From assembly GCA_963675915.1 (NCBI GenBank), contig OY780959.1, positions 1,950,001 to 1,982,000 of the forward strand: a DNA stretch of 32,000 nucleotides. Reading direction: 5' to 3'. The notes under the pieces were generated by a model. It saw only the letters and a list, made by a program, of their open reading frames with translations, did not search any database and had not been told where the DNA came from. The stretch is from Coprobacillaceae bacterium (GTDB taxonomy: Bacteria > Bacillota_I > Bacilli_A > Erysipelotrichales > Coprobacillaceae). The translations under genes and the position numbers were made by a program. Numbering within the stretch: the first letter of the stretch is position 1; every line of letters begins with the position of its first letter. Shown here in pieces: positions 6,201 through 16,714 of the stretch.

Positions 6201-6411
6201 CAGTCAAAGGTTCGATGAACACTTTATCAGCGATATCTTTGTCAGTCATGATTGTTGCCGGGTTTGAGTTGATCAATACAACTTCGCACCCTTCTTCTTT
6301 TAACGCACGGCAAGCTTGAGTTCCGGCATAATCGAATTCCGCAGCTTGACCGATAATGATTGGACCTGACCCAATTACTAAAACTTTCTTAATTGAATTA
6401 TCTCTAGGCAT
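3217..6411 (-). CDS. carB: Carbamoyl-phosphate synthase large subunit
   Basis: ORF track, 1066 aa, with duplicated ATP-grasp halves (VLVIGSGPIIIGQAAEFDYAG... and VMVLGSGPIRIGQGIEFDYC...) and an MGS-like C-terminus. I place the start at ATG 6411 (MPRDNSIKKVLVIGSG). GGAGG lies about 8 nt upstream of it, but only about 2 nt upstream of the track start at 6417. Confidence 0.95.
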   Translation of the reverse strand: MPRDNSIKKVLVIGSGPIIIGQAAEFDYAGTQACRALKEEGCEVVLINSNPATIMTDKDIADKVFIEPLTVPVVKKLIIQEKPDSILPTLGGQNALNIAMALADEGFLEENNVRTIGTSTDTIKKAEDRLEFKETMESINEPCTASKVITIVDDAVEFANEIGYPVVVRPAYTLGGSGGGVAHNDKELREIAGNGLRLSRVTQCLIEKSIAGWKEIEYEVMRDGKGNCITVCNMENLDPVGVHTGDSIVVAPSQTLSDKEYQMLRTSAINIISTLGIEGGCNVQYALNPNSFEYAVIEVNPRVSRSSALASKATGYPIAKLAAKIALGYSLDEIKNAVTKKTYASYEPTLDYIVCKIPKWPFDKFVGSSRELGTQMKATGEVMAICDNFEGALMKALRSLEQNFYYLESKGLDEMSVAEIEVKLQDVDDQRLFAVAQAIRLGITPERIHEITKIDLWFIDKIQHLVEIEAKLRKDELTEELLTLAKHHQFPNRVIAEFTGKDKKEISDLVDSFGIRSIYKMVDTCAAEFDASTPYYYSIQGEVNEAEVDHNRKKVMVLGSGPIRIGQGIEFDYCSVHSVWALKDAGYDTIIVNNNPETVSTDFDIADRLYFEPLTPEDVENIVKVEKPDGAIVQFGGQTAIKLTKDLMEMGVKILGTSAEDVDAAEDRERFDQILDKCEIDRPRGDTVFTEDEAIEVANRLGYPVLVRPSYVLGGAGMEIALNDADVRKFIRIVNRTYQEHPILIDKYLMGKEVEVDAICDGTDILIPGIMEHVERAGVHSGDSISVYPTQKVKEELKTTIVEYTRRLAKALNVVGLINIQFILYDDQVYVIEVNPRSSRTIPYISKVTDIPVVELATKAIMGETLPELGYEYGLAEEKETIAVKMPVFSFEKIKGAEISLGPEMKSTGEVLGVSKNYDEAIYKAFLGAGFDLPKKKNIICTIKDSDKEEFLPIAKQYYQYGYDLYATIGTYQYLVDHDCPCNLVNRIGDKENTVLDLMYTETVDLIIDTPTRNDNLKDGFIIRRFAVEAGIPIFTSLDTAQALITCLQNKDKYESSLIDITKI

Positions 6412-7483
6412 TAACATTTCCTCCCATCATTTCAGCGAATTCATCAAACAAAGCATCAGTATCCAAAGGACCTGCACATGCTTCCGGGTGGAATTGCACT
6501 GTCTTAATATTTTTATTTTTATAGATTAATCCTTCGATTGTACTGTCATTTACATTTACAAACCATGTATCTGCGATATTATTGTCAATACTTTCAGGAT
6601 CAATTACGTAGTTGTGATTTTGTGTTGAAATATAAACACGACCTGATACTAAGTCTTTAACCGGATGGTTGGCACCATGATGTCCATATTTCATTTTTTC
6701 AGTTTTTAAACCATGAGCCAAAGCCATCAATTGATGTCCTAAGCAGATCGCGAAAATCGGAGTTCCAGATTCGCTTAATTTTTTGATTTCTTCAATGATT
6801 TCCACATTTTCTTCAGGGTCTCCCGCCCCGTTTGAAAGCATAATACCATCGAAATTTTGAGCGAGGATTTCATCAGCTTTTGTGCTTGCAGGATATACTG
6901 TTACTTCATAGCCACGTTTTGCCAATGAACGGGCAATATTTCTTTTTGCTCCAAAGTCCATCAAAGCAACTCTCTTAGTTCCTTCACCAACAGTGTAAGC
7001 TTCTTTACAAGTGGTTTTTTCAACCACTCCAGTAACTCTGAAGGCTTTTATTTTTTCCAAAACTTCGTCCAAATTATCATATTTGGTAGTTGTAATCATC
7101 CCGTTCATACAACCTTTTTTACGGATAATTTTAGTTATTGCACGAGTGTCCACACCTTGAATTCCTGGAATATCCTGATCAATAAGGTATTGAGACAATT
7201 CAATGTTTTTTCTAAAATTGCTACCCAGTCTAGACAATTCTTTTACAACAAATCCTGAAACATGGGCTTTTGAAGATTCTTGGTCTTCCAGAGCGACTCC
7301 GTAGTTCCCAATTAACGGATAAGTCATTACTACTGATTGGCCACAATATGATGGATCAGTCAAAACTTCGAGATATCCTGTCATTGAAGTATTGAAAACG
7401 AATTCACTAATTATTTCTTTATTAGCTCCGAAACTTTCACCTTCAAACACATTTCCATCTTCTAAAATTAAATATGCTTTCAT
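6404..7483 (-). CDS. carA: Carbamoyl-phosphate synthase small (glutaminase) subunit
   Basis: ORF track, 359 aa. GATase triad context is FAICLGHQL plus the C-terminal HPE. RBS is AAGGAGG before ATG 7483. It overlaps the carB start. Confidence 0.95.
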   Translation of the reverse strand: MKAYLILEDGNVFEGESFGANKEIISEFVFNTSMTGYLEVLTDPSYCGQSVVMTYPLIGNYGVALEDQESSKAHVSGFVVKELSRLGSNFRKNIELSQYLIDQDIPGIQGVDTRAITKIIRKKGCMNGMITTTKYDNLDEVLEKIKAFRVTGVVEKTTCKEAYTVGEGTKRVALMDFGAKRNIARSLAKRGYEVTVYPASTKADEILAQNFDGIMLSNGAGDPEENVEIIEEIKKLSESGTPIFAICLGHQLMALAHGLKTEKMKYGHHGANHPVKDLVSGRVYISTQNHNYVIDPESIDNNIADTWFVNVNDSTIEGLIYKNKNIKTVQFHPEACAGPLDTDALFDEFAEMMGGNVNA

Positions 7484-7499
7484 AAAATCCTCCTTATTT

Positions 7500-7531
7500 T
7501 AAAAAAACACGTCACCTATATGGTAACGTGT
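7500..7531 (-). terminator. Rho-independent terminator/attenuator about 17 nt upstream of the carA start codon
   Basis: Minus-strand RNA is ACACGUUACC-AUAUA-GGUGACGUGU (10 bp with one G-U) followed by U7 (7506-7500). It lies inside the carA 5' leader, not after a gene. Confidence 0.7.
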
Positions 7532-7630: not shown

Positions 7631-7659
7631 ATTATACACAATTTAAAAACAGAAATCAA
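7631..7659 (-). promoter_or_regulatory. Sigma-A-type promoter for the carAB leader
   Basis: Minus strand: TTGATT (7659-7654), 17-nt spacer, TATAAT (7636-7631). It predicts a leader of about 140 nt before carA. Confidence 0.55.
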
Positions 7660-7730: not shown

Positions 7731-8282
7731 TTAAATTGAGTATATACGTGTGTCATTATTCAAGGGGAGATTTAATAACGAGGGATCCACATCCCAAGAG
7801 GCCCGGACTCCAACTTTATCAATCACTTCTTGATATGTGGCGCCTTTTTTTATTATAACTGCCTCTTTAAAAATTCCATCCACAACAAAATCAACCTGAA
7901 CAGTGCCTGGGTTGGCTGAAGTATTGAACACAATCGTTTTGCGAGTAGCGATGCTTTTTTCCTGATTGAAGAAATTAGTATAGGTTAGTACATTATTTAT
8001 GTCAATTATACCACTTTCTTTGTCGATGCTCAATATTTCCACCCGCAAATCGTCACTTCCATTTAAATTTGTTGCCATGCTTGTCAAATAGCTGTCAATC
8101 AGTTCCTGATAGCTCCAGTCCATTTCCTTGATTTTCATATCAATCATCAATTCATAAATACAGTCACTGCTCACACTCTCAAGCATTGACTTCTTAGTAG
8201 ATTCCAAACCGGTAACCATTATAATCAATGCCGCCATCACCGCCACCATAATTGCCCCAAAGACAACAACCGCCTGTTTCAT
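7731..8282 (-). CDS. Membrane-anchored hypothetical protein, last gene of the pilus-like operon
   Basis: The ORF track gives 7731..8303. ATG 8282 (MKQAVVVFGAIMVAVMAALIIMVTG...) forms an ATGA overlap with the upstream stop, so I prefer it. There is one N-terminal hydrophobic helix and then a soluble domain of about 150 aa. I recognise no family. Confidence 0.5.
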   Translation of the reverse strand: MKQAVVVFGAIMVAVMAALIIMVTGLESTKKSMLESVSSDCIYELMIDMKIKEMDWSYQELIDSYLTSMATNLNGSDDLRVEILSIDKESGIIDINNVLTYTNFFNQEKSIATRKTIVFNTSANPGTVQVDFVVDGIFKEAVIIKKGATYQEVIDKVGVRASWDVDPSLLNLPLNNDTRIYSI

Positions 8283-8599
8283 CGCGCTACCCCGCTGATA
8301 CAATAATGTTGGACAATATTCAGAACCGGAATTGAGTAGTCATATTCCAGCTGAATTTTCACCAATTCCTGATTCGCTCCGGTTATCACTTTTTCTACTG
8401 AAATATCGTAGGGAGAGTTACTGACAATACGATCAATAATATCCTGATTATGACCGCTCGATTCGATTTGCCTGATGCACTGAGTCTGATAGTCTCTTGC
8501 ATTATTGGCAAGAAGATTCATACCAATAAGATTTACTCCCAGAACACTCATAAAAACAATAAGCACTACAATCACATAAAACTCCACAGCTATTTTCAT
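8279..8599 (-). CDS. TadE-like / pseudopilin-like protein
   Basis: ORF track, 106 aa. The N-terminus MKIAVEFYVIVVLIVFMSVLG resembles the TadE-type A-x-x-E-F hydrophobic N-terminus but has no leader. AAGGAG RBS 7 nt upstream. Confidence 0.5.
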   Translation of the reverse strand: MKIAVEFYVIVVLIVFMSVLGVNLIGMNLLANNARDYQTQCIRQIESSGHNQDIIDRIVSNSPYDISVEKVITGANQELVKIQLEYDYSIPVLNIVQHYCISGVAR

Positions 8600-8602
8600 C
8601 GT

Positions 8603-9058
8603 TTACTCCTTTATAACCACTAGCGAATGCGTAATTTCGCTGGTTGAATTACGATTCAGGATAATCGTCACCTCATCAACAAAAGAACCAAAATCCCCGA
8701 GTACCACATCAATGTAGTTCAACATTCCTGAATCACTGTATTCGGAAACAAATATCAGATTATCCAAATTCTCATTCTGGTAATATATATGGTTTCCGGA
8801 AGTGGTTTGATATATCCAATCCTCAGGATTGAAATTTGATTCACCCAACAGTTCCACCGGACTGACAGTTCTGGCTGTCGTTTCAGCTGATCTTACCGAC
8901 AACTCCAAATTTTCCGGTTCATATCCAGCAACCTCAAAGTCACCTCTGCTTACCGAAATCCGGTAAAGCGGACGGACTGCCGTGATAATCATCAATAACA
9001 ACACCGCCATCAAAACAGTCAAAACTACGTTGCCGTATTCTTCAACAAGTTCTTTCAT
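8603..9058 (-). CDS. Pilin-like protein (151 aa) with an Flp-like EYG N-terminus
   Basis: ORF track. The N-terminus MKELVEEYGNVVLTVLMAVLLLMIITAV shares the motif of the three small peptides. GGGAG RBS. ATGA overlap with the upstream micro-ORF. Confidence 0.55.
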   Translation of the reverse strand: MKELVEEYGNVVLTVLMAVLLLMIITAVRPLYRISVSRGDFEVAGYEPENLELSVRSAETTARTVSPVELLGESNFNPEDWIYQTTSGNHIYYQNENLDNLIFVSEYSDSGMLNYIDVVLGDFGSFVDEVTIILNRNSTSEITHSLVVIKE

Positions 9059-9198
9059 GACAGGCTCCCATCACACATGACCTTGATCTGATCACAGATC
9101 AAATCAAACCACCTAGAATCGGTATTGGTTGTCAAAATCAGCGATCCGATAAGCACCAACACCAACACCATTCCATACTCTTCAATCAAATTTTTCAT
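9055..9198 (-). CDS. Flp-like pilin-type peptide (47 aa), not in the ORF track
   Basis: Manual translation gives MKNLIEEYGMVLVLVLIGSLILTTNTDSRWFDLICDQIKVMCDGSLS. Its ATG overlaps the upstream stop (ATGA) and its TGA overlaps the downstream ATG (ATGA). Confidence 0.5.
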   Translation of the reverse strand: MKNLIEEYGMVLVLVLIGSLILTTNTDSRWFDLICDQIKVMCDGSLS

Positions 9199-9296
9199 AA
9201 CAATCCAGACAAGATTCTTCCAAACAAACCAATTATCCCGAATAAGATACTGCCAAAAATAATGGTCTGACCATATTCTCCAATCAATTCTCTCAT
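9195..9296 (-). CDS. Flp-like pilin-type peptide (33 aa), not in the ORF track
   Basis: Manual translation gives MRELIGEYGQTIIFGSILFGIIGLFGRILSGLL. Its ATG shares 1 nt with the platform-gene stop (TGATG). A GGTGA-type SD lies about 5 nt upstream. Confidence 0.45.
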   Translation of the reverse strand: MRELIGEYGQTIIFGSILFGIIGLFGRILSGLL

Positions 9297-10768
9297 CAAA
9301 TCACCCGCATCTTTCCAATCAATAACAAAACAAATCCCGACATGTCCCCCATCATTTTGAATGTTGCCAGTAGCATCGGCAGATATTGCAACACCCCCAT
9401 GAAAGCAATCTTGTTTTCATGATATAGTCGCTCAGTTTTATCAACAAGTTTGTTATTTCTTGTCATCAATTCGTTTAAAAAACGGGAACTTTCACCATTG
9501 CCATTGATATCCAGAGCATATAAGGCCCGCATCAGAGATTTCACCTCTGACAAATTGTATTCACCTAAGAAATCATTGTATGGCAGCAATGAATTGGGAT
9601 TTTCTTGAAGTTCATTCAAGAATTTTGTGATTGCTCCCTTCATAATATGCGGTGCTTCAACAAGCGACTGTTCTATCGCCACGTGGACATTATTATTTTG
9701 AAGCAAAAGTGTAACTTGCAACAACCACTGCGGAAAAGCAAGTTCGATCTCCTTAATAATCTTTTGGCGCATCCTTTTTTTCCGGCTCCATATCTTACTC
9801 CCGACAATCAGTCCAATCATAATCAAGACCAGTGAAACAAGTAAGCGACCTGCGAGGTACGCCCCTACAGCCAGGCCAAGCGTGACCGCCAGTAAAATTA
9901 TTTCATTTTTGCCAAAAATGCTTTTGGTCCCGAAAAGTTCATAGGCCCGGTCAATTTCATTTTTTTTCATCAGTTGGATTCCATCAAAATATCTCCCGGT
10001 CAGCTTGCGCCTTACCACGACCACAAGCGCAATCAATCCCAACAAATAGGCCAAGGAAATGACTTTGACATACACCAAATCAAAAATGTTCAACTCACCT
10101 GGCAAAATGATGCCCATCACCGCAGCAATCAAAGAAGCCATCAATGCCGAAATATAGATATTCTTTTCGATTTGATGTTGTGATTTGGTTAAGAGATATA
10201 CTCTTTGGACCCACAACAGTCTTTCTTGGGCAAGTAGATCAAGTGTCTCCTGATAGGCGCCACCCCATTTTTCAATTTGGATTAAAAACCGATGAATTTT
10301 TTCAAGACGGTAACAATTGAATTCCTGTTCGATAATGGCAAATGATTTCTCATAGATATCCGGCTCTTCGTTAAATTCCAGATAGGAGATAACCTGCTCA
10401 AGGCGTTCGAGCAAGATTCCATCTTTGAAAATCTGACTGGTTTCCTGTAAGGATATCAGCAGATTGCCATGACGTTTGAAAGACATCATCAGCTGCTCTA
10501 GATAATTATTCAAGTCATCGAAGCGACGTTGTTGATAAAGATCCCGATATGTATCCCTAATCACCATCGGAACGGCAATCATCATTGCCAGCACAAGAAT
10601 GACCAAATAGATGGAGCGGAGTTGAAACAAGTAACCAATCACAAGGATTCCCACAGTCGATCCGGCCATTATCTTATAAAATCGGGAAGTTGAAAATTCA
10701 TAGCCGTATTCCGCTATTTCCCGATGCATATCTTTTAATCTCATTATCTTCATAATTATCAAGATCAA
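9296..10768 (-). CDS. Fused TadB/TadC-like (T2SS-F family) inner-membrane platform protein
   Basis: ORF track, 490 aa (TTG start; ATG alternatives at 10753 and 10744). It has an internally duplicated architecture, seen twice: 2 TM helices, a cytoplasmic helical domain of about 130 aa, then TM helix or helices. It sits directly downstream of the secretion ATPase. Confidence 0.65.
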   Translation of the reverse strand: MILIIMKIMRLKDMHREIAEYGYEFSTSRFYKIMAGSTVGILVIGYLFQLRSIYLVILVLAMMIAVPMVIRDTYRDLYQQRRFDDLNNYLEQLMMSFKRHGNLLISLQETSQIFKDGILLERLEQVISYLEFNEEPDIYEKSFAIIEQEFNCYRLEKIHRFLIQIEKWGGAYQETLDLLAQERLLWVQRVYLLTKSQHQIEKNIYISALMASLIAAVMGIILPGELNIFDLVYVKVISLAYLLGLIALVVVVRRKLTGRYFDGIQLMKKNEIDRAYELFGTKSIFGKNEIILLAVTLGLAVGAYLAGRLLVSLVLIMIGLIVGSKIWSRKKRMRQKIIKEIELAFPQWLLQVTLLLQNNNVHVAIEQSLVEAPHIMKGAITKFLNELQENPNSLLPYNDFLGEYNLSEVKSLMRALYALDINGNGESSRFLNELMTRNNKLVDKTERLYHENKIAFMGVLQYLPMLLATFKMMGDMSGFVLLLIGKMRVI

Positions 10769-11844
10769 TTACCTGAGCAATCGATTTCCTCCTTTCTGTT
10801 TCGCTTAATTTCTTCATATCTTTGATAGGGGAATTTTATTCCATTTCGCTGGAATTTTCGTTTAATTTTACATGGCAGCGGCTGTTGTTTCAGTTTCGCC
10901 TCATCCACCAGAACCACCATCTTGCACTCACCTTCCACGTAATCAAATATGCAAATTTGATCGATCCATCGTCGGATTTCATTATTGGCCAATTTGCGAT
11001 TCACAAGTATCCCGATATCAATGAAATTGAAGATGTCCTCATAAATGACATCGGCGCTGATTTCCAACTGCATCATATTCTTGATTCGCCGGGGAATTTT
11101 ATTGACATCATCGCAATGGATAGTTGTCAGGCCATTGTGACCGGTCGAGAACGCCTCCAAAAGGAATTTGACTTCCCGTGACCTGGCCTCGGAAAGAATA
11201 ATCCATTTGGGCATTTGTCTTAAGCAGGTTTTTATCGCTTTTGGATAATCGAATCTTTGATCATCGACTTTAAGCTCCACACAATCCTTCCCGGGGTTTA
11301 TTTTCGAATACCTTATTTCAAGATTATCTTCAATTGTAATAACTTTTTCGTTTCCTGGAATATATCCAGTCAACCATTTTAATAGTTCTGTTTTGCCCGA
11401 ACCGGTGATTCCGGCGACAATGACATTGCACGATGCTTTGATGCAATTCTCCAGGAAATTCAGAATCGGTGCAGTCGCATATTCGGTTTCCAGCATCATA
11501 TCCCGATCAAGCCGGGATATCGGCGGTGTTTTTCTAATCGATATCGCTACTCCCGATTTGGCTACCGAATCGTGAATTATTGAAATTCTCAAATCTGCAG
11601 TTTCAGCTTCCAGGACATTGTGTTCCTGATTGAAACTTTTCGACACACTGTTTTTTACCCTCATAATAAAAGTGTTGAGAAAGTCTTCACTCAATTCAAG
11701 ATTCACCTTATATCTTCCCCGATGAATGTGATCGACCCAGACATCCCGACCATTATAGTTAATATCGGTTATCGACTCATCCTCAATAAAAGGTAATAAT
11801 TCCCCAAAGCAATTTTGGGGAATTATCTCAAACATTGTTTCCAT
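10765..11844 (-). CDS. CpaF/TadA/VirB11-family secretion ATPase
   Basis: ORF track, 359 aa. Motifs: N-terminal ITDINYNGRDVWVD; Walker A VAGITGSGKTELL; Asp box ITIEDNLEI; Walker B-like RQMPKWIILSEARSRE; His box STGHNGLTTIH. Confidence 0.85.
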   Translation of the reverse strand: METMFEIIPQNCFGELLPFIEDESITDINYNGRDVWVDHIHRGRYKVNLELSEDFLNTFIMRVKNSVSKSFNQEHNVLEAETADLRISIIHDSVAKSGVAISIRKTPPISRLDRDMMLETEYATAPILNFLENCIKASCNVIVAGITGSGKTELLKWLTGYIPGNEKVITIEDNLEIRYSKINPGKDCVELKVDDQRFDYPKAIKTCLRQMPKWIILSEARSREVKFLLEAFSTGHNGLTTIHCDDVNKIPRRIKNMMQLEISADVIYEDIFNFIDIGILVNRKLANNEIRRWIDQICIFDYVEGECKMVVLVDEAKLKQQPLPCKIKRKFQRNGIKFPYQRYEEIKRNRKEEIDCSGN

Positions 11845-12005
11845 TATGATACCGGTTCAGCGGCAGCCTGTGTGGTCAACTCGGTAATCTGACCTTCTAT
11901 CGCATCCCCGATTTGGGTCCCAATCCCCGGCCCGATGCCCACAAATCCCAATATTACCAATGCAGTAACTACAATCAATCCATATTCTCCTAAAAAATCT
12001 TTCAT
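11844..12005 (-). CDS. Flp-family-like pilin (53 aa), candidate major subunit, not in the ORF track
   Basis: Manual translation gives MKDFLGEYGLIVVTALVILGFVGIGPGIGTQIGDAIEGQITELTTQAAAEPVS. AAGGAG RBS 6 nt upstream. The TAA stop shares 1 nt with the ATPase ATG. Confidence 0.6.
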   Translation of the reverse strand: MKDFLGEYGLIVVTALVILGFVGIGPGIGTQIGDAIEGQITELTTQAAAEPVS

Positions 12006-12017
12006 TATTTTCTCCTT

Positions 12018-14414
12018 TTATTCAATATTAAAATTCACCAGAGTCTGACCCTGGTACTTGTTTATTCCATTAATTATAATCGTTCCGATTCCCCGGCCCA
12101 CATTGTTGCGGTACGCTAAACGGTAGTCGGCATTTTCAATAAGTCGTCTTCCTTCAAAATAAATAAGCGGCTTCAAATCCAACGGCTTGCCAGTAAAATT
12201 CTGATCAGGAACCGCAGTCACTACCCCATTTTCAATGTTTCTTTTTACTATAGGTATTGTGATTATTTTGGTCCCGATAAATTCATCAGGAACTGCTACC
12301 TTAGCAATAATTTCATTATTCCAGGTGGTCGACCAAGAAATAAGCGCCCCTTTATCGAGATCGTTCCCCTGATTGTCGGTAATATCCAGCGATTGGAATA
12401 AGTCATTTTCATTGGTAATCCCGCCAAGCGAAACTCTAACATCTTCGACAGTACGAAGTTCCGGTTTTATCAGATCTTCATTAAGCCAATCAATCTCCGG
12501 ACTCATGCAATTCACCCTGAGGTAGTTTGCTTTGATTCTCTTTCTTTGATAATTGTCAATCTCATATGAAACCAACGGTTCGACTCTTTTCAGACTTCTA
12601 TCAAGAAGTGTTCTAAAGTAATAATCCTTCGAGTATCGGCCCCAGACGATGTTGCCATCGCTGTCCGATTTGAAATGGTCGCTGTCGATGAATCTTATCT
12701 GATATGTACTTTCATCTTTCAAATCGTCAATAACCCGAACGTTATAACTGGCAGTTATGTAATATTCGTGTTTAGACATATAACTAAATTCAATTGCGAC
12801 GATGCCGTCATGCTGAAAACTCCCAAAACTGTAAGAACCGGTTTTGATTTGTTCTCCAACTTCCTGACCTTCGTCGACTCCTCGTATTCCGGTACAGTCC
12901 CTGATCAAATAGTCGATATTTTCAGGGGTGATCTGGGATAATCGCAATGTACCATCATGACCGATGATTTCCGGTCGTAAAAATACCAACTGCTCCAAAT
13001 CATAAAGAATTTCAAGGTAATATCCCGAGCCGTCAAAATTGACATAATCGCCAAAATTGTCGGCAGCTATTTGCAAACCTTCTTTGAGTTCAATCTCATT
13101 TACAGTTTCAAACACGGTCCTGCCTTCTTGCTCAACCCACATTTTCAATGGTTTATAATCATTAAGGTTGAACTGGGAAAATTCGCTGGTATGGTAATCC
13201 TCCCCAACTGGAATCTGCTCTTCCTTCAAAATCAGATCCGGGATAGGAGCATAGTATATTACATCGATATTATCATATTCTAAATATTCGATAGTTACCG
13301 TATGCTCTTCACCTGGGATGACATTGGCATAATACGTCTTGGAAACAACACTATAGGGAAATGCGATTTCCCGGGGTGTGATCAAATAAGATCCAGGTGA
13401 CATATCTGGCAGGTTTACTTCTCCGCTTTCATCAGTTCTCAACATTATTGAATATCCATTTGCTCCTGAAACTGTCAGCGGGGCATTCGCTACTGGATTG
13501 TCCATATTTGAACGGGTTTTTATCCTGATTCCACCATTTTCTTGCAATTTCAGATGAATGTTGGTTTTAAGAGTTCGAGAGGTTCTAGTCAATGATCCTA
13601 TCGTCTGATAGCTGTCATTGTCAGGATTTTCAACATCCACCGTTCCTAATACTTTGGCAAGAGTAACAGTGTAATCATATAGATTCCCATTTAAGACAAA
13701 TTCCAAATCACATTCGCTGATTGCGATTCCCCGCTCAGCCTCGAAGTGGAAAAGATCACCACTCTCAAGATATGCAGTCGTTCCGGTCGTCCGGATATTT
13801 TCAGTCTCATTGACAAGAGTAATCCCATCTGGAAGATTGAAATACCCAAAGGTGTTTTCGTCGGCATGGAGTCCGACTGAATCACTGACCAGTCTAGTTT
13901 CCAGATCAAAAAAACCAATATCCGAACTTGTAAAATACAGTTCATGATAATTGGGATCCCTCAAGATGGGTAATTGATTAAAATAATCAATCAGATTGCA
14001 ATTCATGTAGCGATCCAGGGTATAGAAACTGAATCCTCTCATGTCATTAGCGTAAATATGACTTGCCATCAAATGAGTGTAGGTAATCTGGTTTTCAACC
14101 GAAAGATCGCTCATCAGATTGCCTTCGCCGCCATAACCGTAATAGAGGCACTTGATTAGATCGACATTGGCGCTTGTTGCTTGTGAGGTTACTATCCCGT
14201 CCGGTTGCCTAGTTCTCGATGCATTCAGACAAAATGCCATCTCTCCATCGATATTATAGCGTTGGGTTTGCATGCTTGTATAAAAAGGATAAGGAACCGT
14301 CCCATCTTCACCGAGCGTTGCTGCCTGGGCGAAGACTGTCGTCATTACCATGATAACAATCGGGATTATTCCGATTCCCAAACCACATGCCCATTTAAGA
14401 AATTTTGTTTGCAT
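12018..14414 (-). CDS. Large secreted adhesin-like protein (thioester-domain-like N-region, CnaB/SpaA-like fold, C-terminal Ig-like module)
   Basis: The ORF track gives 12018..14453 from TTG. ATG 14414 (MQTKFLKWACGLGIGIIPIVIMVMTTVFAQA) has a GGGGTG SD and yields a signal peptide. Internal landmarks: AFCLNASRTRQP; LYYGYGG; PLTVSGANGYSIMLRTDESGEVNLPDMSPGSYLITP; C-terminal FTGKPLDL...DYRLAYRNNVGRGIGTIIINGINKYQGQ. Confidence 0.6.
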   Translation of the reverse strand: MQTKFLKWACGLGIGIIPIVIMVMTTVFAQAATLGEDGTVPYPFYTSMQTQRYNIDGEMAFCLNASRTRQPDGIVTSQATSANVDLIKCLYYGYGGEGNLMSDLSVENQITYTHLMASHIYANDMRGFSFYTLDRYMNCNLIDYFNQLPILRDPNYHELYFTSSDIGFFDLETRLVSDSVGLHADENTFGYFNLPDGITLVNETENIRTTGTTAYLESGDLFHFEAERGIAISECDLEFVLNGNLYDYTVTLAKVLGTVDVENPDNDSYQTIGSLTRTSRTLKTNIHLKLQENGGIRIKTRSNMDNPVANAPLTVSGANGYSIMLRTDESGEVNLPDMSPGSYLITPREIAFPYSVVSKTYYANVIPGEEHTVTIEYLEYDNIDVIYYAPIPDLILKEEQIPVGEDYHTSEFSQFNLNDYKPLKMWVEQEGRTVFETVNEIELKEGLQIAADNFGDYVNFDGSGYYLEILYDLEQLVFLRPEIIGHDGTLRLSQITPENIDYLIRDCTGIRGVDEGQEVGEQIKTGSYSFGSFQHDGIVAIEFSYMSKHEYYITASYNVRVIDDLKDESTYQIRFIDSDHFKSDSDGNIVWGRYSKDYYFRTLLDRSLKRVEPLVSYEIDNYQRKRIKANYLRVNCMSPEIDWLNEDLIKPELRTVEDVRVSLGGITNENDLFQSLDITDNQGNDLDKGALISWSTTWNNEIIAKVAVPDEFIGTKIITIPIVKRNIENGVVTAVPDQNFTGKPLDLKPLIYFEGRRLIENADYRLAYRNNVGRGIGTIIINGINKYQGQTLVNFNIE

Positions 14415-15477
14415 TTTCACCCCTTCTTCTTGATTTTTTCCCAAGGCCGCCAATAGCTGTAATCATCGCTAGAAAACTTGCAATGGCAATCACCACTTTT
14501 CCAAAGTCATCTCCGGTCATAACAATCGGATTATCATCGGAATTGTTATGATCAGATGTGACAAGATCATCAACAATAACATTAGAGTCATCTCCTTTCC
14601 GGGCTTTAACACTCTTTGGCTGAGTAACTTGCTGCAAAGGGGGCTCACCGATTTTAGGTTTTGTGGCTGACAAACTAACTGAATCAAGAATAAAATCATA
14701 ATTACTGCGTCTGGCAATAAAATTCCCAATTCGATTGTTGAACTTTATTGTATAGGCAACCCCTTTTTTCAAATAAAAGGTATTGCCCGAAATAGAGCAT
14801 TTTTCCCGGGAGATCAAATCATCACCAAGAAACAGTTCAAAATCTGTTTCTTGGATCAGCTTTGGATCATCGATTTCCATCTTGAAATGGAACGTCACCG
14901 GGAGGTCATTATCGGCTTCTACAGAAAAATCAACTTTCTTATACCCATTGTCTTCCTTTTTGAGAGATGAATAAAATTCTTTAGCATAGTTACCATAAAC
15001 GAAAACAAAGCGATACTCTTTGTCGACTTCTCCTCCTTTGAAATAGTAATAACCATCACGGGTTTCAAGTCGGTCCACCAGACCTTCCTCATCATAAACA
15101 TCAATCCGACTGCCGGGATAATAATCGCAAACCAGCACAATTTCGTTGGCTTCGACAATTATCACCTTCGCGTCTGAGCTGAAATCTATTTCGATATTTT
15201 GCAACTGACGATAACCGGCGATCGTATTGATTTGATTCAATTCATAGATCCGTCTTTCGTCAATGGGAAAATCATAGTCTTGATTCTCACTTTTGAAAAT
15301 GACCGATTCCCCATCCGACGATGACAATTCCAAAATCAGTCCTTCCATCGATTGCTCCACTAACGGCTTCATGCTGTCGATAAATATTAATCGGGACCCT
15401 TCCTGAGCCTGTACCTGATTAGACATTCCAAGCCAAACAAAAAAAGATGCCAAAAGCATCTTAAGTATTTTTTTCAT
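14395..15477 (-). CDS. Secreted surface protein with a C-terminal TM anchor and basic tail
   Basis: ORF track, 360 aa. Signal peptide is MKKILKMLLASFFVWLGMSNQVQAQ. The C-terminus is ...NPIVMTGDDFGKVVIAIASFLAMITAIGGLGKKSRRRG. GGAGGT RBS. Confidence 0.6.
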   Translation of the reverse strand: MKKILKMLLASFFVWLGMSNQVQAQEGSRLIFIDSMKPLVEQSMEGLILELSSSDGESVIFKSENQDYDFPIDERRIYELNQINTIAGYRQLQNIEIDFSSDAKVIIVEANEIVLVCDYYPGSRIDVYDEEGLVDRLETRDGYYYFKGGEVDKEYRFVFVYGNYAKEFYSSLKKEDNGYKKVDFSVEADNDLPVTFHFKMEIDDPKLIQETDFELFLGDDLISREKCSISGNTFYLKKGVAYTIKFNNRIGNFIARRSNYDFILDSVSLSATKPKIGEPPLQQVTQPKSVKARKGDDSNVIVDDLVTSDHNNSDDNPIVMTGDDFGKVVIAIASFLAMITAIGGLGKKSRRRGENANKIS

Positions 15478-15488
15478 GATACCTCCAT

Positions 15489-15512
15489 AAAAAAAAGAGG
15501 CCCCTGACCTCT
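15489..15512 (-). terminator. Rho-independent terminator after ilvA
   Basis: Minus-strand RNA is AGAGG-UCAGGGG-CCUCU followed by U8 (A-run 15489-15495 on the + strand). The first arm touches the ilvA stop codon. The RBS of the next gene starts 2 nt after the U-run. Confidence 0.7.
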
Positions 15513-16714
15513 TAATTTACACGAACTATTTCATAACCCAATTCAGTGAATTTATCCATAATTGTTTTAATATGTTCTTCACCTGATGTTTCGCAAGTAA
15601 CTCGTAATTCAACTTCTGAGAAACGGGCGAAATTCTTAAACTGATTATGCTCAACTCCTATTACATTCGCATCCATTTCATTGAGAACTCTGGATACGAT
15701 TTCAAGTTGTCCGGGTTTGTCAGGTAGTTGAACCGAGAATGTGAAAATTCTTCCTCGGGAAATAAGCCCTTTATTGATCATTGATGAAATTGTCAAAACA
15801 TCAATATTCCCTCCCGAAATCAGTGATACGACTTTTTTGCCCTCGAGGTTAAGTTTCTTGGTTCCAGCCAAAGCCAGAATTCCAGAACCTTCAGCCACGA
15901 GCTTATGTCGTTCAACCAAAAGCAGGAAAGCTTCCATCAGTTCATAATCATCAACCAATACGATTTCGTCGACAAATTCCTTGATATATTCGAATGGTTT
16001 GATTCCTATTTGCTTTACAGCAGTTCCATCCGCAATGGTATTTACTTCTTGAAGCAGGCAAATTTTGTCTTCTTTGACCGCCGCTTCCGCGCTAGCAGCC
16101 CCCTCAGGTTCAACCCCGATAATTTTGATATTAGGATTTATAGCTTTGGCACAGGCAGCAATACCCGAAATCAGACCTCCCCCTCCAATCGGAACCAGAA
16201 TTGCATCCGCATCTGGAAGTTCTTCAAGAATTTCAAGAGCGATTGTCCCTTGCCCTTCGATAACATCCTCATCATCAAACGGATGAATGAATGTCAGATC
16301 ATTTTCTTCTTGCAATTCACAAGCTTTTTGGTATGCTTCATCATACACTTCCCCATAAAGCACCACGTTGGCACCAAGCGCTTTGGTCGCGTTAACTTTG
16401 ATCAAAGGCGTGTGCGCCGGCATTACAATCGTCGCTTCAACCCCTTGTTCTCTTGCAGCGAACGCCACTCCTTGAGCATGGTTTCCTGCTGAAGAAGCAA
16501 TCAAACCTTTACGTTTGGCCTCTTCAGAGAGTTTGCTTATTTTATTATAGGCACCTCTTAATTTGAATGCTCCGGTTTTTTGAAGATTCTCCGGTTTGAT
16601 ATATACTTCATTACCCGACTCCTCACTAAATGCTTCAGAGTAAATTAAAGGTGTTTGCAGTATTACTTTATCAACCCTTTTTTTTGCTTCTTGAAAGTCC
16701 TTTAATTCCAACAT
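15512..16714 (-). CDS. ilvA: Threonine ammonia-lyase (threonine dehydratase) with a C-terminal ACT-like domain
   Basis: ORF track, 400 aa. PLP-lysine context is QKTGAFKLRGA; glycine loop is IGGGGLISG; the regulatory C-domain is about 80 aa. AGGAGG RBS. Confidence 0.9.
   Translation of the reverse strand: MLELKDFQEAKKRVDKVILQTPLIYSEAFSEESGNEVYIKPENLQKTGAFKLRGAYNKISKLSEEAKRKGLIASSAGNHAQGVAFAAREQGVEATIVMPAHTPLIKVNATKALGANVVLYGEVYDEAYQKACELQEENDLTFIHPFDDEDVIEGQGTIALEILEELPDADAILVPIGGGGLISGIAACAKAINPNIKIIGVEPEGAASAEAAVKEDKICLLQEVNTIADGTAVKQIGIKPFEYIKEFVDEIVLVDDYELMEAFLLLVERHKLVAEGSGILALAGTKKLNLEGKKVVSLISGGNIDVLTISSMINKGLISRGRIFTFSVQLPDKPGQLEIVSRVLNEMDANVIGVEHNQFKNFARFSEVELRVTCETSGEEHIKTIMDKFTELGYEIVRVN

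Follow-up and report, generated by a model that had tools for sequence, protein, structure and literature searches.

A putative Tad-like type IV filament module with leaderless Flp-like pilins and a thioester adhesin between ilvA and carA of a Coprobacillaceae bacterium

How could a type IV filament be assembled when its pilins carry no leader peptide and no prepilin peptidase is encoded in the locus? This question is raised by a gene island in a Coprobacillaceae bacterium (assembly GCA_963675915.1, contig OY780959.1, positions 1,950,001 to 1,982,000; these 32,000 nucleotides are referred to as the window). The island consists of ten minus-strand open reading frames (ORFs) at positions 7731-15477 of the window, between carA (6404-7483) and ilvA (15512-16714). 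To our knowledge, every known type IV filament system depends on an A24 prepilin peptidase. The comparisons described here suggest that the island probably encodes a working type IV filament machine, a new Tad-like variant that would assemble leaderless Flp-like pilins and act together with a thioester adhesin encoded in the same operon. A preliminary description, made from the sequence of the window, had proposed a Tad/archaeal-like module with one ATPase, one platform and an adhesin, and this overall reading is supported, with corrections. In the order of transcription, the ten genes are the following (L numbers refer to related loci used for comparison; T2SS, type II secretion system; TM, transmembrane).

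14395..15477, minus strand: surface protein of 360 residues with an N-terminal signal peptide, a C-terminal TM helix and a basic tail
12018..14414, minus strand: thioester-domain (TED/TIE-type) adhesin of 798 residues with a Sec signal peptide, without LPXTG or other anchor
11844..12005, minus strand: Flp-like major pilin candidate of 53 residues, starting MKDFLGEYG, without leader
10765..11844, minus strand: secretion ATPase of the TadA/CpaF/archaeal-GspE branch, 359 residues, short, without N-terminal extension
9296..10768, minus strand: polytopic platform, fused and divergent T2SS-F-like, 477-490 residues, equivalent to TadB plus TadC
9195..9296, minus strand: pilin-like protein of 33 residues, starting MRELIGEYG, with counterparts in L001 and L006
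9055..9198, minus strand: pilin-like protein of 47 residues, starting MKNLIEEYG, with counterparts in L001, L002, L006 and L007
8603..9058, minus strand: minor-pilin candidate of 151 residues, starting MKELVEEYG, with a C-terminal domain and homologues in L001 and L009
8279..8599, minus strand: bitopic core protein of 106 residues with an N-terminal TM helix, the motif A..YH....E.E.S and a C-terminal GYAR
7731..8282, minus strand: bitopic core protein of 183 residues, belonging to a conserved family

The four EYG proteins had been listed earlier as a 53-residue Flp-like pilin and three further pilin-like proteins (33, 47 and 151 residues), and their N-termini are found to be real. In all four, a hydrophobic helix follows the EYG start. 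The gene of the 53-residue protein has the sequence AAGGAGA 7 nt upstream of its ATG and an in-frame TAA 4 codons upstream, and because of these two features a longer leader is impossible. The same start is found throughout the family, which was collected by a scan of one genome per species; 84 loci were compared, 80 of them from the scan, and 81 have a called ATPase. Across these 81 loci, the operon strand has 240 ORF starts of the type M-x5-EYG, and the opposite strand has 7. When a hydrophobic segment is also required, 214 EYG ORFs are retained, present in 78 of the 81 loci and beginning at residue 1 with M-K-x-h-h-[E/G]-E-Y-G; 124 of these have no possible upstream start, and 184 have a Shine-Dalgarno-like motif within 20 nt upstream. 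Usually, one or two copies of 50-65 residues, often tandem-duplicated, precede the ATPase gene, and one to three small copies together with one copy of 150-374 residues follow it. A lack of conservation of the small ORFs in homologous loci, which would have spoken against the preliminary description, is not observed, as their counterparts are kept. A 374-residue protein of two loci (L007:12786-13910 and L014:12741-13862) has a leaderless EYG N-terminus followed by LRR_5 repeats, and has the appearance of a modular minor pilin equipped with an adhesin domain.

The likeness of these proteins to Flp pilins is seen in profile and Pfam comparisons. When a profile of 24 major pilins is compared with the Protein Data Bank (PDB) sequences, just two natural proteins are matched, the Tad pilin of Caulobacter (8u1k, E 0.019) and a Flp pilin (8u2b, E 0.099), and both of these weak alignments set E7-Y8 of the pilins opposite E5-Y6 of the mature Tad/Flp pilin. 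Flp_Fap is the top Pfam family of the major pilins (9 of the 24 members, best E 0.004), and the comparison of the pilin profile with Rhizobium Flp by hhalign is not significant (E 0.078). Judged by these alignments, the pilin-like proteins are Flp-like, with just Met-Lys before the position at which mature Flp starts, and without a Gly(-1). The EY motif of Flp prepilins is therefore present, yet at residues 7-8 of the primary product and without a Gly-ended leader; the pilins are not ordinary prepilins, as they have essentially no leader. Kinship with archaellum or flagellin proteins was also considered and was rejected, weak Arch_flagellin matches being found in just 2 of the 24 pilins.

The ATPase has a PF00437 (T2SSE) domain (1e-24), and its Walker A (GxxGxGKTE), Asp box (TIEDNLE), Walker B (ILSEARS) and His box (TTxH) motifs are invariant in 20 family members, in agreement with the CpaF/VirB11-type ATPase with four motifs that had been described. 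When compared with solved structures, its bit scores decrease from A. fulgidus aGspE2 (PDB entry: 2oap) (94) to CpaF (75), FlaI (67) and VirB11 (HP0525) (63). The preliminary description had named a grouping with VirB11 as a result that would count against it; the best scores are instead those of archaeal GspE2 and CpaF, in a placement that consists of bit-score rankings and is not a tree. The ATPase belongs to the TadA/CpaF branch and not to any named orthologue group, because it falls below every NCBIfam equivalog cut-off (129 versus 250 for TIGR02788 (VirB11), 89 versus 305 for TrbB). An exact look-up of its sequence returned nothing on record.

The platform is highly divergent, and its identification comes from the family and from a structural model. 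The family comprises 1015 representative protein clusters at E <= 1e-3; PF00482 (T2SSF) is matched by 30 of 93 diverse members (best 1.8e-7), and the next Pfam family by 13. The AlphaFold2 (AF2) model is all-helical (pLDDT 82), and its top Foldseek match in the PDB is a PilC chain (3jc8_Ca, prob 0.99, E 0.017), where 3jc8 is an architectural model of the type IVa pilus and not an experimental structure. The domain matches of the model are the cytoplasmic domains of EpsF and PilC (TM-scores of 0.61-0.68, normalised on the target). The two halves of the protein align weakly to each other, pointing to an internal duplication, and the platform profiles find no PilC, GspF or TadB/C among the PDB sequences. 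On this evidence, which is weak but consistent, the 490-residue protein is accepted as a fused, very divergent TadB/TadC-type platform. The duplicated T2SS-F platform of the preliminary description thus holds for the family and is weak for the window protein, which has no Pfam match of its own. A complete lack of T2SS-F homology, which would have spoken against that description, is not what is observed.

Both bitopic proteins combine a long N-terminal helix with a small sheet, and neither is matched by PF07811 (Pfam, and phmmer with TadE). The 106-residue protein, which has no Pfam match, may be a pseudopilin, but the label TadE-like that it had been given finds no support in HMM or profile tests. 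The last gene of the operon had been described as encoding a membrane-anchored protein, and this agrees with the bitopic 183-residue protein. In its AF2 model, an N-terminal helix of 50 residues is accompanied by another helix and by a sheet of three strands (pLDDT 70-91 for residues 1-120), and a Foldseek search with this model gives NTF2/VirB8-like matches only, which are insignificant; the pilin-like fold suggested by the model is a reading of its secondary structure and not a structural match. An exact look-up of the 183-residue sequence also returned nothing on record.

An A24 peptidase, a ParA/TadZ protein and a secretin are all missing from the 32-kb window, as had been noted before and as is borne out by its ORFs and a Pfam scan. 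The peptidase search covered the window and 10 kb on either side of the 84 loci, not whole genomes, and no A24 peptidase is found among the polytopic membrane ORFs of this range. Queries with Rhizobium CpaA, CpaE, CpaB, TadE, TadB and TadC (phmmer, E <= 0.01) have no match in the loci, where CpaF has 90 matches. The system is not Tad sensu stricto, because three Tad features, a processed Flp prepilin, TadV and TadZ, are not found in the locus.

The 798-residue protein, described earlier as adhesin-like, is matched by PF20610 (TED_2) at 1e-16, and has weak SpaA/prealbumin matches in Pfam. Its TED N-terminus aligns to the Tie proteins of plasmids (E 1e-5), and Cys62 (in AFCLN) and the YQ motif are common to it and the pLS20-type Tie adhesins. 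From these matches it is a TED domain protein with the thioester Cys and Gln, the formation of the bond itself being putative. No match is found when the protein is compared with the PDB by phmmer. Its C-terminus (...GQTLVNFNIE) is neither a sorting signal nor a TM helix. Chromosomal TIE proteins are typically anchored to the cell wall by sortase, through an LPXTG motif. This chromosomal-type sortase (LPXTG) anchor is likewise missing from TIEpLS20 (PMC8092201). A sortase pilus was considered for the island and rejected, as neither a sortase nor LPXTG is present. The thioester Cys is not kept in the two closest syntenic relatives, where Asn (L001) or Ser (L009) takes its position (L001/L009:7475-9844), and these two adhesins are probably thioester-dead.

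The 360-residue protein encoded by the first gene has no Pfam or NCBIfam match. Its gene is present only in the window and in the 99 %-identical L003, is absent from the syntenic L009 and L010, and by this distribution is a lineage-specific accessory outside the conserved module. The conserved unit has at most nine genes, because the 360-residue gene is restricted to the lineage and is preceded by a terminator-like hairpin. The ten-gene unit of the preliminary description is therefore correct as a chain of ORFs and not as a conserved module. Two hairpins bound the operon:

15495..15513, minus strand: terminator-like hairpin that follows ilvA immediately and precedes the first (360-residue) ORF
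7507..7531, minus strand: strong terminator-like hairpin, between the operon end and carA

The chaining of the ten same-strand ORFs by overlaps or tiny gaps is confirmed at the coordinates claimed for it. In the order of transcription, the 360- and 798-residue genes overlap by 20 nt, with ATG 14414 as start, and a 12-nt gap, with AAGGAGA inside, separates the latter from the gene of the 53-residue protein. This gene overlaps the ATPase gene by 1 nt (TAATG), as the platform gene does the 33-residue gene (TGATG). ATGA overlaps join the 33- and 47-residue genes, the 47- and 151-residue genes and the 106- and 183-residue genes, and there is a 3-nt gap between the 151- and 106-residue genes. The platform start is the sole soft point among the junctions read: the overlap with the ATPase gene, of 4 nt, exists only when TTG 10768 is taken as start, and is uncertain since the gene call of a relative corresponds to the alternative ATG 10729. 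The same ten genes have been called independently in the complete genome of L003, at 99 % identity. The GC content of the window is uniform (~0.40), and its other ORFs of at least 100 residues encode metabolic enzymes, tRNA synthetases, two-component proteins, surface proteins or uncharacterised membrane proteins. Downstream of the operon, the carA leader has a promoter-like site (7631-7659, minus strand) followed by the strong hairpin at 7507-7531 (minus strand), an arrangement that may be a pyrimidine attenuator; at the gathering threshold no Rfam family is matched anywhere in the window, including this hairpin.

A relative of the module is present in at least 223 species genomes. The hosts are mostly Lachnospiraceae (Agathobacter, Lachnobacterium, Roseburia, Blautia, Faecalicatena, Robinsoniella and Lactonifactor), and three are Erysipelotrichaceae or Coprobacillaceae. 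Clustering of all ORFs of the 84 loci defines a core that consists of the ATPase (81 loci), the platform (80), the 106-residue family (72) and the 183-residue family (71). The minor-pilin families are conserved too, and large signal-peptide surface proteins (TED, LRR_5 and Flg_new; up to 2380 residues) are variable passengers. The arrangement is far beyond chance: its gene order is found again in over 80 further loci, and the EYG starts are strongly biased to the operon strand.

The position of the island is also informative. Housekeeping genes flank 80 of the 84 loci, and for the window the core metabolic flanks without integrase that had been described are confirmed. The ilvA-carA site is occupied by the cluster in L003, L009 and L010 as well (L010 lies on the same contig as L001), and from this synteny the module appears fixed at the site in the lineage of the window. 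The gltX, asnB, ilvA, carA and carB genes of L009/L010 are 84-91 % identical to those of the window. The corresponding identities within the island are 62-64 % for the ATPase, 44-46 % for the platform and also for the 106-residue protein, 33-38 % for the 183-residue protein, 33 % for the TED adhesin and 24-28 % for the 151-residue minor pilin. Because the flanks are 84-91 % identical and the island 24-64 %, the island would be old at this site and either very fast evolving or exchanged as a cassette; the gap in divergence points to diversifying selection, or to replacement of the cassette while its site stays the same.

Some further features of the related loci may be mentioned here. In L001, also from Coprobacillaceae, 1.25 kb without a called gene (11017-12272) lie between the ATPase and platform genes, and an 84-residue resolvase fragment is found between the minor pilin gene and a 116-residue gene (14476-15970); this operon appears to be interrupted by inserted DNA. 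In 28 Lachnospiraceae loci, those of the Agathobacter/Lachnobacterium group, a 339-residue MCP-domain (PF00015) protein is encoded ~1.5 kb upstream of the ATPase on the same strand (e.g. L070:2053-3069). An NlpC/P60 hydrolase with a PcsB coiled coil, a possible wall-remodelling partner, is encoded downstream on the same strand in seven loci (e.g. L020:14580-15728). Two giant surface proteins, L002:14352-17969 (LRR_5) and L006:13008-16610 (Flg_new), are unrelated but have a similar C-terminal tail of ~40 residues (...K.HG[IV]GN..[QE]T[AD]DGL..F...F....), spotted by eye only, which might be a docking module for the filament.

The preliminary description had missed that the closest relatives outside the family are found in the conjugation operons of pLS20 and pHTβ, and that four loci adjoin a relaxase and/or a type IV coupling protein (T4CP). 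In the plasmid collection, the best matches of the ATPase are annotated as CpaF/VirB11 family proteins of Gram-positive plasmids (Paraclostridium, the pLS20 family, pXO1-like, Listeria and Enterococcus pHTβ) with 114-159 bits, compared with 87-107 bits for proteobacterial CpaF and 71-84 bits for VirB11/TrbB. The ATPases of the pLS20-type front modules are 31-33 % identical to it (E 1e-45 to 1e-48). The pLS20-type ATPase is itself closest to CpaF (91 bits versus 65 for VirB11). Just upstream of VirD4, these plasmids encode an anchorless TED/SpaA adhesin, a small TM protein, the ATPase, two membrane proteins of ~250 residues, a bitopic protein of ~120 residues and one-helix proteins of ~47 residues starting MLDQNTDR. 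In pLS20 the counterparts are tie (34), gene 36, 'virB11' (37) and the 'unknown' genes 38-41 (PMC8557374). A tblastn search of the plasmid collection with the platform gives no match, and in hhalign comparisons with the family profile its N-terminal half matches p38-like proteins (E 2.3e-5) and its C-terminal half p39-like proteins (E 3.4e-7), in colinear order. For the 106-residue family and the pLS20-type p40 profiles (E 0.16), and for the 183-residue family and p36 (E 0.2), the comparison is not significant despite a suggestive local motif, and homology is not claimed. By these comparisons, the module and the front part of Gram-positive conjugation operons (pLS20 genes 34-41) are distantly related.

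A T4CP (VirD4-type) and DUF3801 precede the cluster in 4 of the 84 loci, L007 (Robinsoniella, L007/L008), L016, L018 and L019. A relaxase is also present in L007, L018 and L019 (not in L016), and ArdC in L007 and L018. Some genomes have two copies of the cluster (L016/L026, L018/L023 and L019/L066), and in each of these pairs a T4CP adjoins one copy but not the other. The one-helix proteins of 47-50 residues on the plasmids of Paraclostridium, Bacillus (pLS20 family) and Enterococcus (pHTβ) have M/L-LDQNTDR, a W and a hydrophobic helix, and are often tandem duplicates (L089 12274-12677, L090 14950-15262, L091 6008-6160); by these features they could be the counterparts of the leaderless pilins.

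A machine built from these parts would work as follows. The hexameric TadA/CpaF-type ATPase (359 residues) would drive the single fused TadB/TadC-like platform, which would pull the small single-helix pilins from the membrane and polymerise them. The 53-residue protein would be the major subunit, and the 33-, 47- and 151-residue proteins minor or priming subunits. These pilins would be made essentially mature and remain unprocessed, a prepilin peptidase step being neither needed nor possible at the usual Gly(-1) site. The 106- and 183-residue bitopic proteins would be further envelope parts of the machine. The anchorless thioester adhesin may be displayed by the filament, perhaps at its tip, or may work with it, making covalent contact with another surface, such as a host or mucus glycoprotein or another bacterium.

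Several points weigh against such a machine. The filament is a prediction from genes, and the Flp matches of its presumed subunits are weak (E 0.004-0.1). The window platform alone has no Pfam, NCBIfam or PDB sequence match, and the comparison of the platform profile with one Rhizobium TadB (E 0.14) and TadC (E 0.027) by hhalign is not significant. For the 106- and 183-residue proteins, the profile and Foldseek comparisons demonstrate no pilin or Tad homology. In principle, a peptidase encoded elsewhere in the genome might cut after the invariant Gly9. Furthermore, covalent adhesion is not a family-wide trait, because the thioester Cys is replaced in L001 and L009.

It is conceivable, although unlikely, that the module is a conjugation accessory, a domesticated mating-pair module or one acting in trans, whose filament and TED adhesin join donor to recipient for integrative and conjugative elements (ICEs) elsewhere and do not serve host adhesion. 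The R64 thin pilus and the PAPI-1 pilus attach donor to recipient for DNA transfer in this manner. The plasmid ATPases are the closest ones outside the family, the same gene order precedes VirD4 in the pLS20-family and pHTβ operons, the platform halves match p38 and p39, and the clusters of L007, L016, L018 and L019 follow DUF3801 and the T4CP, with a relaxase in all but L016. Moreover, pLS20 Tie is needed for mating in liquid, and it has no sorting signal and is not sortase-anchored (PMC8092201). Yet no integrase, relaxase, T4CP, VirB4 or VirD4 is encoded in the 32-kb window, so that the neighbouring transfer genes which the preliminary description had named as counter-evidence are not there; housekeeping genes are the flanks of nearly all loci, the locus is syntenic in relatives whose flanks are just 84-91 % identical, the identity to the plasmid modules is low, and pLS20 genes 36-41 themselves have no assigned roles. 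The chromosomal, housekeeping-flanked and fast-evolving setting favours a role in host or matrix adhesion, and the ancestry favours mating contact. A decayed ICE remnant was rejected as an explanation, the ORFs being intact, translationally coupled and syntenic in relatives, and transfer genes being absent.

The pilins might also belong to an ordinary Tad pilus, with TadV and perhaps TadZ encoded elsewhere and MKxxxxEYG as a very short class III leader that is cut after Gly9, but this is rather improbable. In its favour, Gly9 does not vary and lies ahead of a hydrophobic stretch, like the cleavage sites of prepilins, the searches covered the loci only, and in some organisms, e.g. Bifidobacterium breve, tadV lies outside the tad locus. 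However, cleavage after Gly9 is less likely because the E-Y pair, aligned (weakly) opposite E5-Y6 of mature Tad pilins, would be lost and because the leader would be acidic or neutral (K2 versus E6 and E7) and not basic. Position +5 of the mature protein would also not be acidic, and position +1 would vary (G, V, I, L, K or S). No peptidase, TadZ or CpaB is found at the 84 loci, whereas published Gram-positive tad loci mostly have tadV and tadZ (PMC3244431, PMC12786226). Highly improbable is a pseudopilus-type, T2SS-like device for export or wall crossing, which would carry the large co-encoded surface proteins that depend on Sec (TED, LRR, Flg_new) across the thick cell wall and would not form a long adhesive pilus. 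Such a device would agree with the anchorless large signal-peptide proteins in or beside many loci (TED, LRR_5, Flg_new; 1200-2380 residues), with the several minor pilin-like genes per locus and with the NlpC/P60 hydrolase downstream in seven loci. But the 50-65-residue protein encoded upstream of the ATPase resembles a Flp major pilin and is often duplicated in tandem, no such T2SS-like export system of monoderms is known, and the identity of the cargo varies freely among the loci.

If the reading as a filament machine with leaderless pilins is correct, then ready-to-assemble Flp-like pilins in a widespread family break the A24-peptidase rule, a minimal machine is defined (ATPase, one platform, pilins and two small membrane proteins), and a major unannotated surface organelle would be recognized in dominant Firmicutes of the human and animal gut, where the family is common (Agathobacter, Roseburia, Blautia, Lachnobacterium, Faecalicatena). 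A wider proposal is put forward tentatively, as possible but not favoured: the family would be a distinct type IV filament branch that polymerises leaderless pilins without a peptidase, perhaps derived from a mating pilus of Gram-positive conjugative elements, where genes 36-41 of pLS20/pHTβ/pXO1 would be such a machine with Tie at its tip, and repeatedly domesticated in gut Lachnospiraceae and Erysipelotrichales as a fast-evolving adhesion organelle. The plasmid link provides a testable answer to the role of 'VirB11' and its neighbouring genes, and to how the anchorless Tie stays attached to the donor cell. In current reviews, parts resembling those of type IV pili are still regarded as missing from Gram-positive conjugation. 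The pLS20 paper states that Gram-positive conjugative elements make no pili (PMC8557374), a review of type IV secretion systems of December 2025 mentions neither pLS20 nor Tad-like parts, and a preprint of the same month on Gram-positive conjugative pili concerns the VirB2-like PrgF, not the pLS20-type module. In full-text searches of the literature, neither this family nor a leaderless Flp pilin was found to be described, in line with the earlier remark that the combination was not known as described.

When compared with the Tad/Flp systems of Caulobacter (Cpa), Aggregatibacter and Bifidobacterium breve, the module shares the TadA/CpaF-branch ATPase and the T2SS-F-type platform. It also shares one-helix pilins of very small size, whose E-Y-G-hydrophobic motif is placed by the profile opposite the N-terminus of mature Flp, and several minor pilin-like genes, and like these systems has no retraction ATPase. 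Unlike in these systems, the pilins have no leader peptide and no Gly(-1) site, and TadV, TadZ, CpaB/RcpC and PF07811 TadE/F are not found in any of the 84 loci. The platform is fused into a single protein, which in most members has diverged too far for the Pfam model. The ATPase has ~350 residues and no CpaF N-terminal domains, and two bitopic proteins are specific to the family. Among Gram-positive bacteria, tad loci mostly have tadV, and an atypical group retains tadV, tadZ and rcpC (Imam et al. 2011, PMC3244431); the Bulleidia tad locus begins with tadV (PMC12786226).

The front modules of pLS20, pHTβ and pXO1-like plasmids resemble the module in gene order, in the CpaF-like ATPase and in the platform halves p38/p39. 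They differ in that they adjoin VirD4, VirB4, VirB6 and, on pHTβ, a VirB2-like gene, in that the platform is split, and in the start of the small proteins (MLDQNTDR.. versus MKxFLEEYG of the family), whereas the window locus lies between ilvA and carA without DNA-transfer genes. The archaeal type IV pili (Epd-like/adhesion) have one ATPase and one platform gene and no alignment complex, as here, and A. fulgidus GspE2 is the best solved-structure match of the window ATPase. However, archaeal pilins have class III signal peptides that are cut by PibD or EppA, and in the window there is no leader and no peptidase gene in the locus; the hosts are Firmicutes, and archaeal-type pilin domains are limited to the two weak Arch_flagellin matches. 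For the Tad-like cluster of TANB77 (Clostridia), EYG leaderless pilins are not reported, and it differs by having CpaB, two TadZ/CpaE-like ATPases, a 640-residue TadA and a 693-residue platform (PMC11680825). It resembles the module described here in its occurrence in gut Clostridia, in its fused TadB/TadC platform and in its many small one-TM pilin-like genes (PMC11680825).

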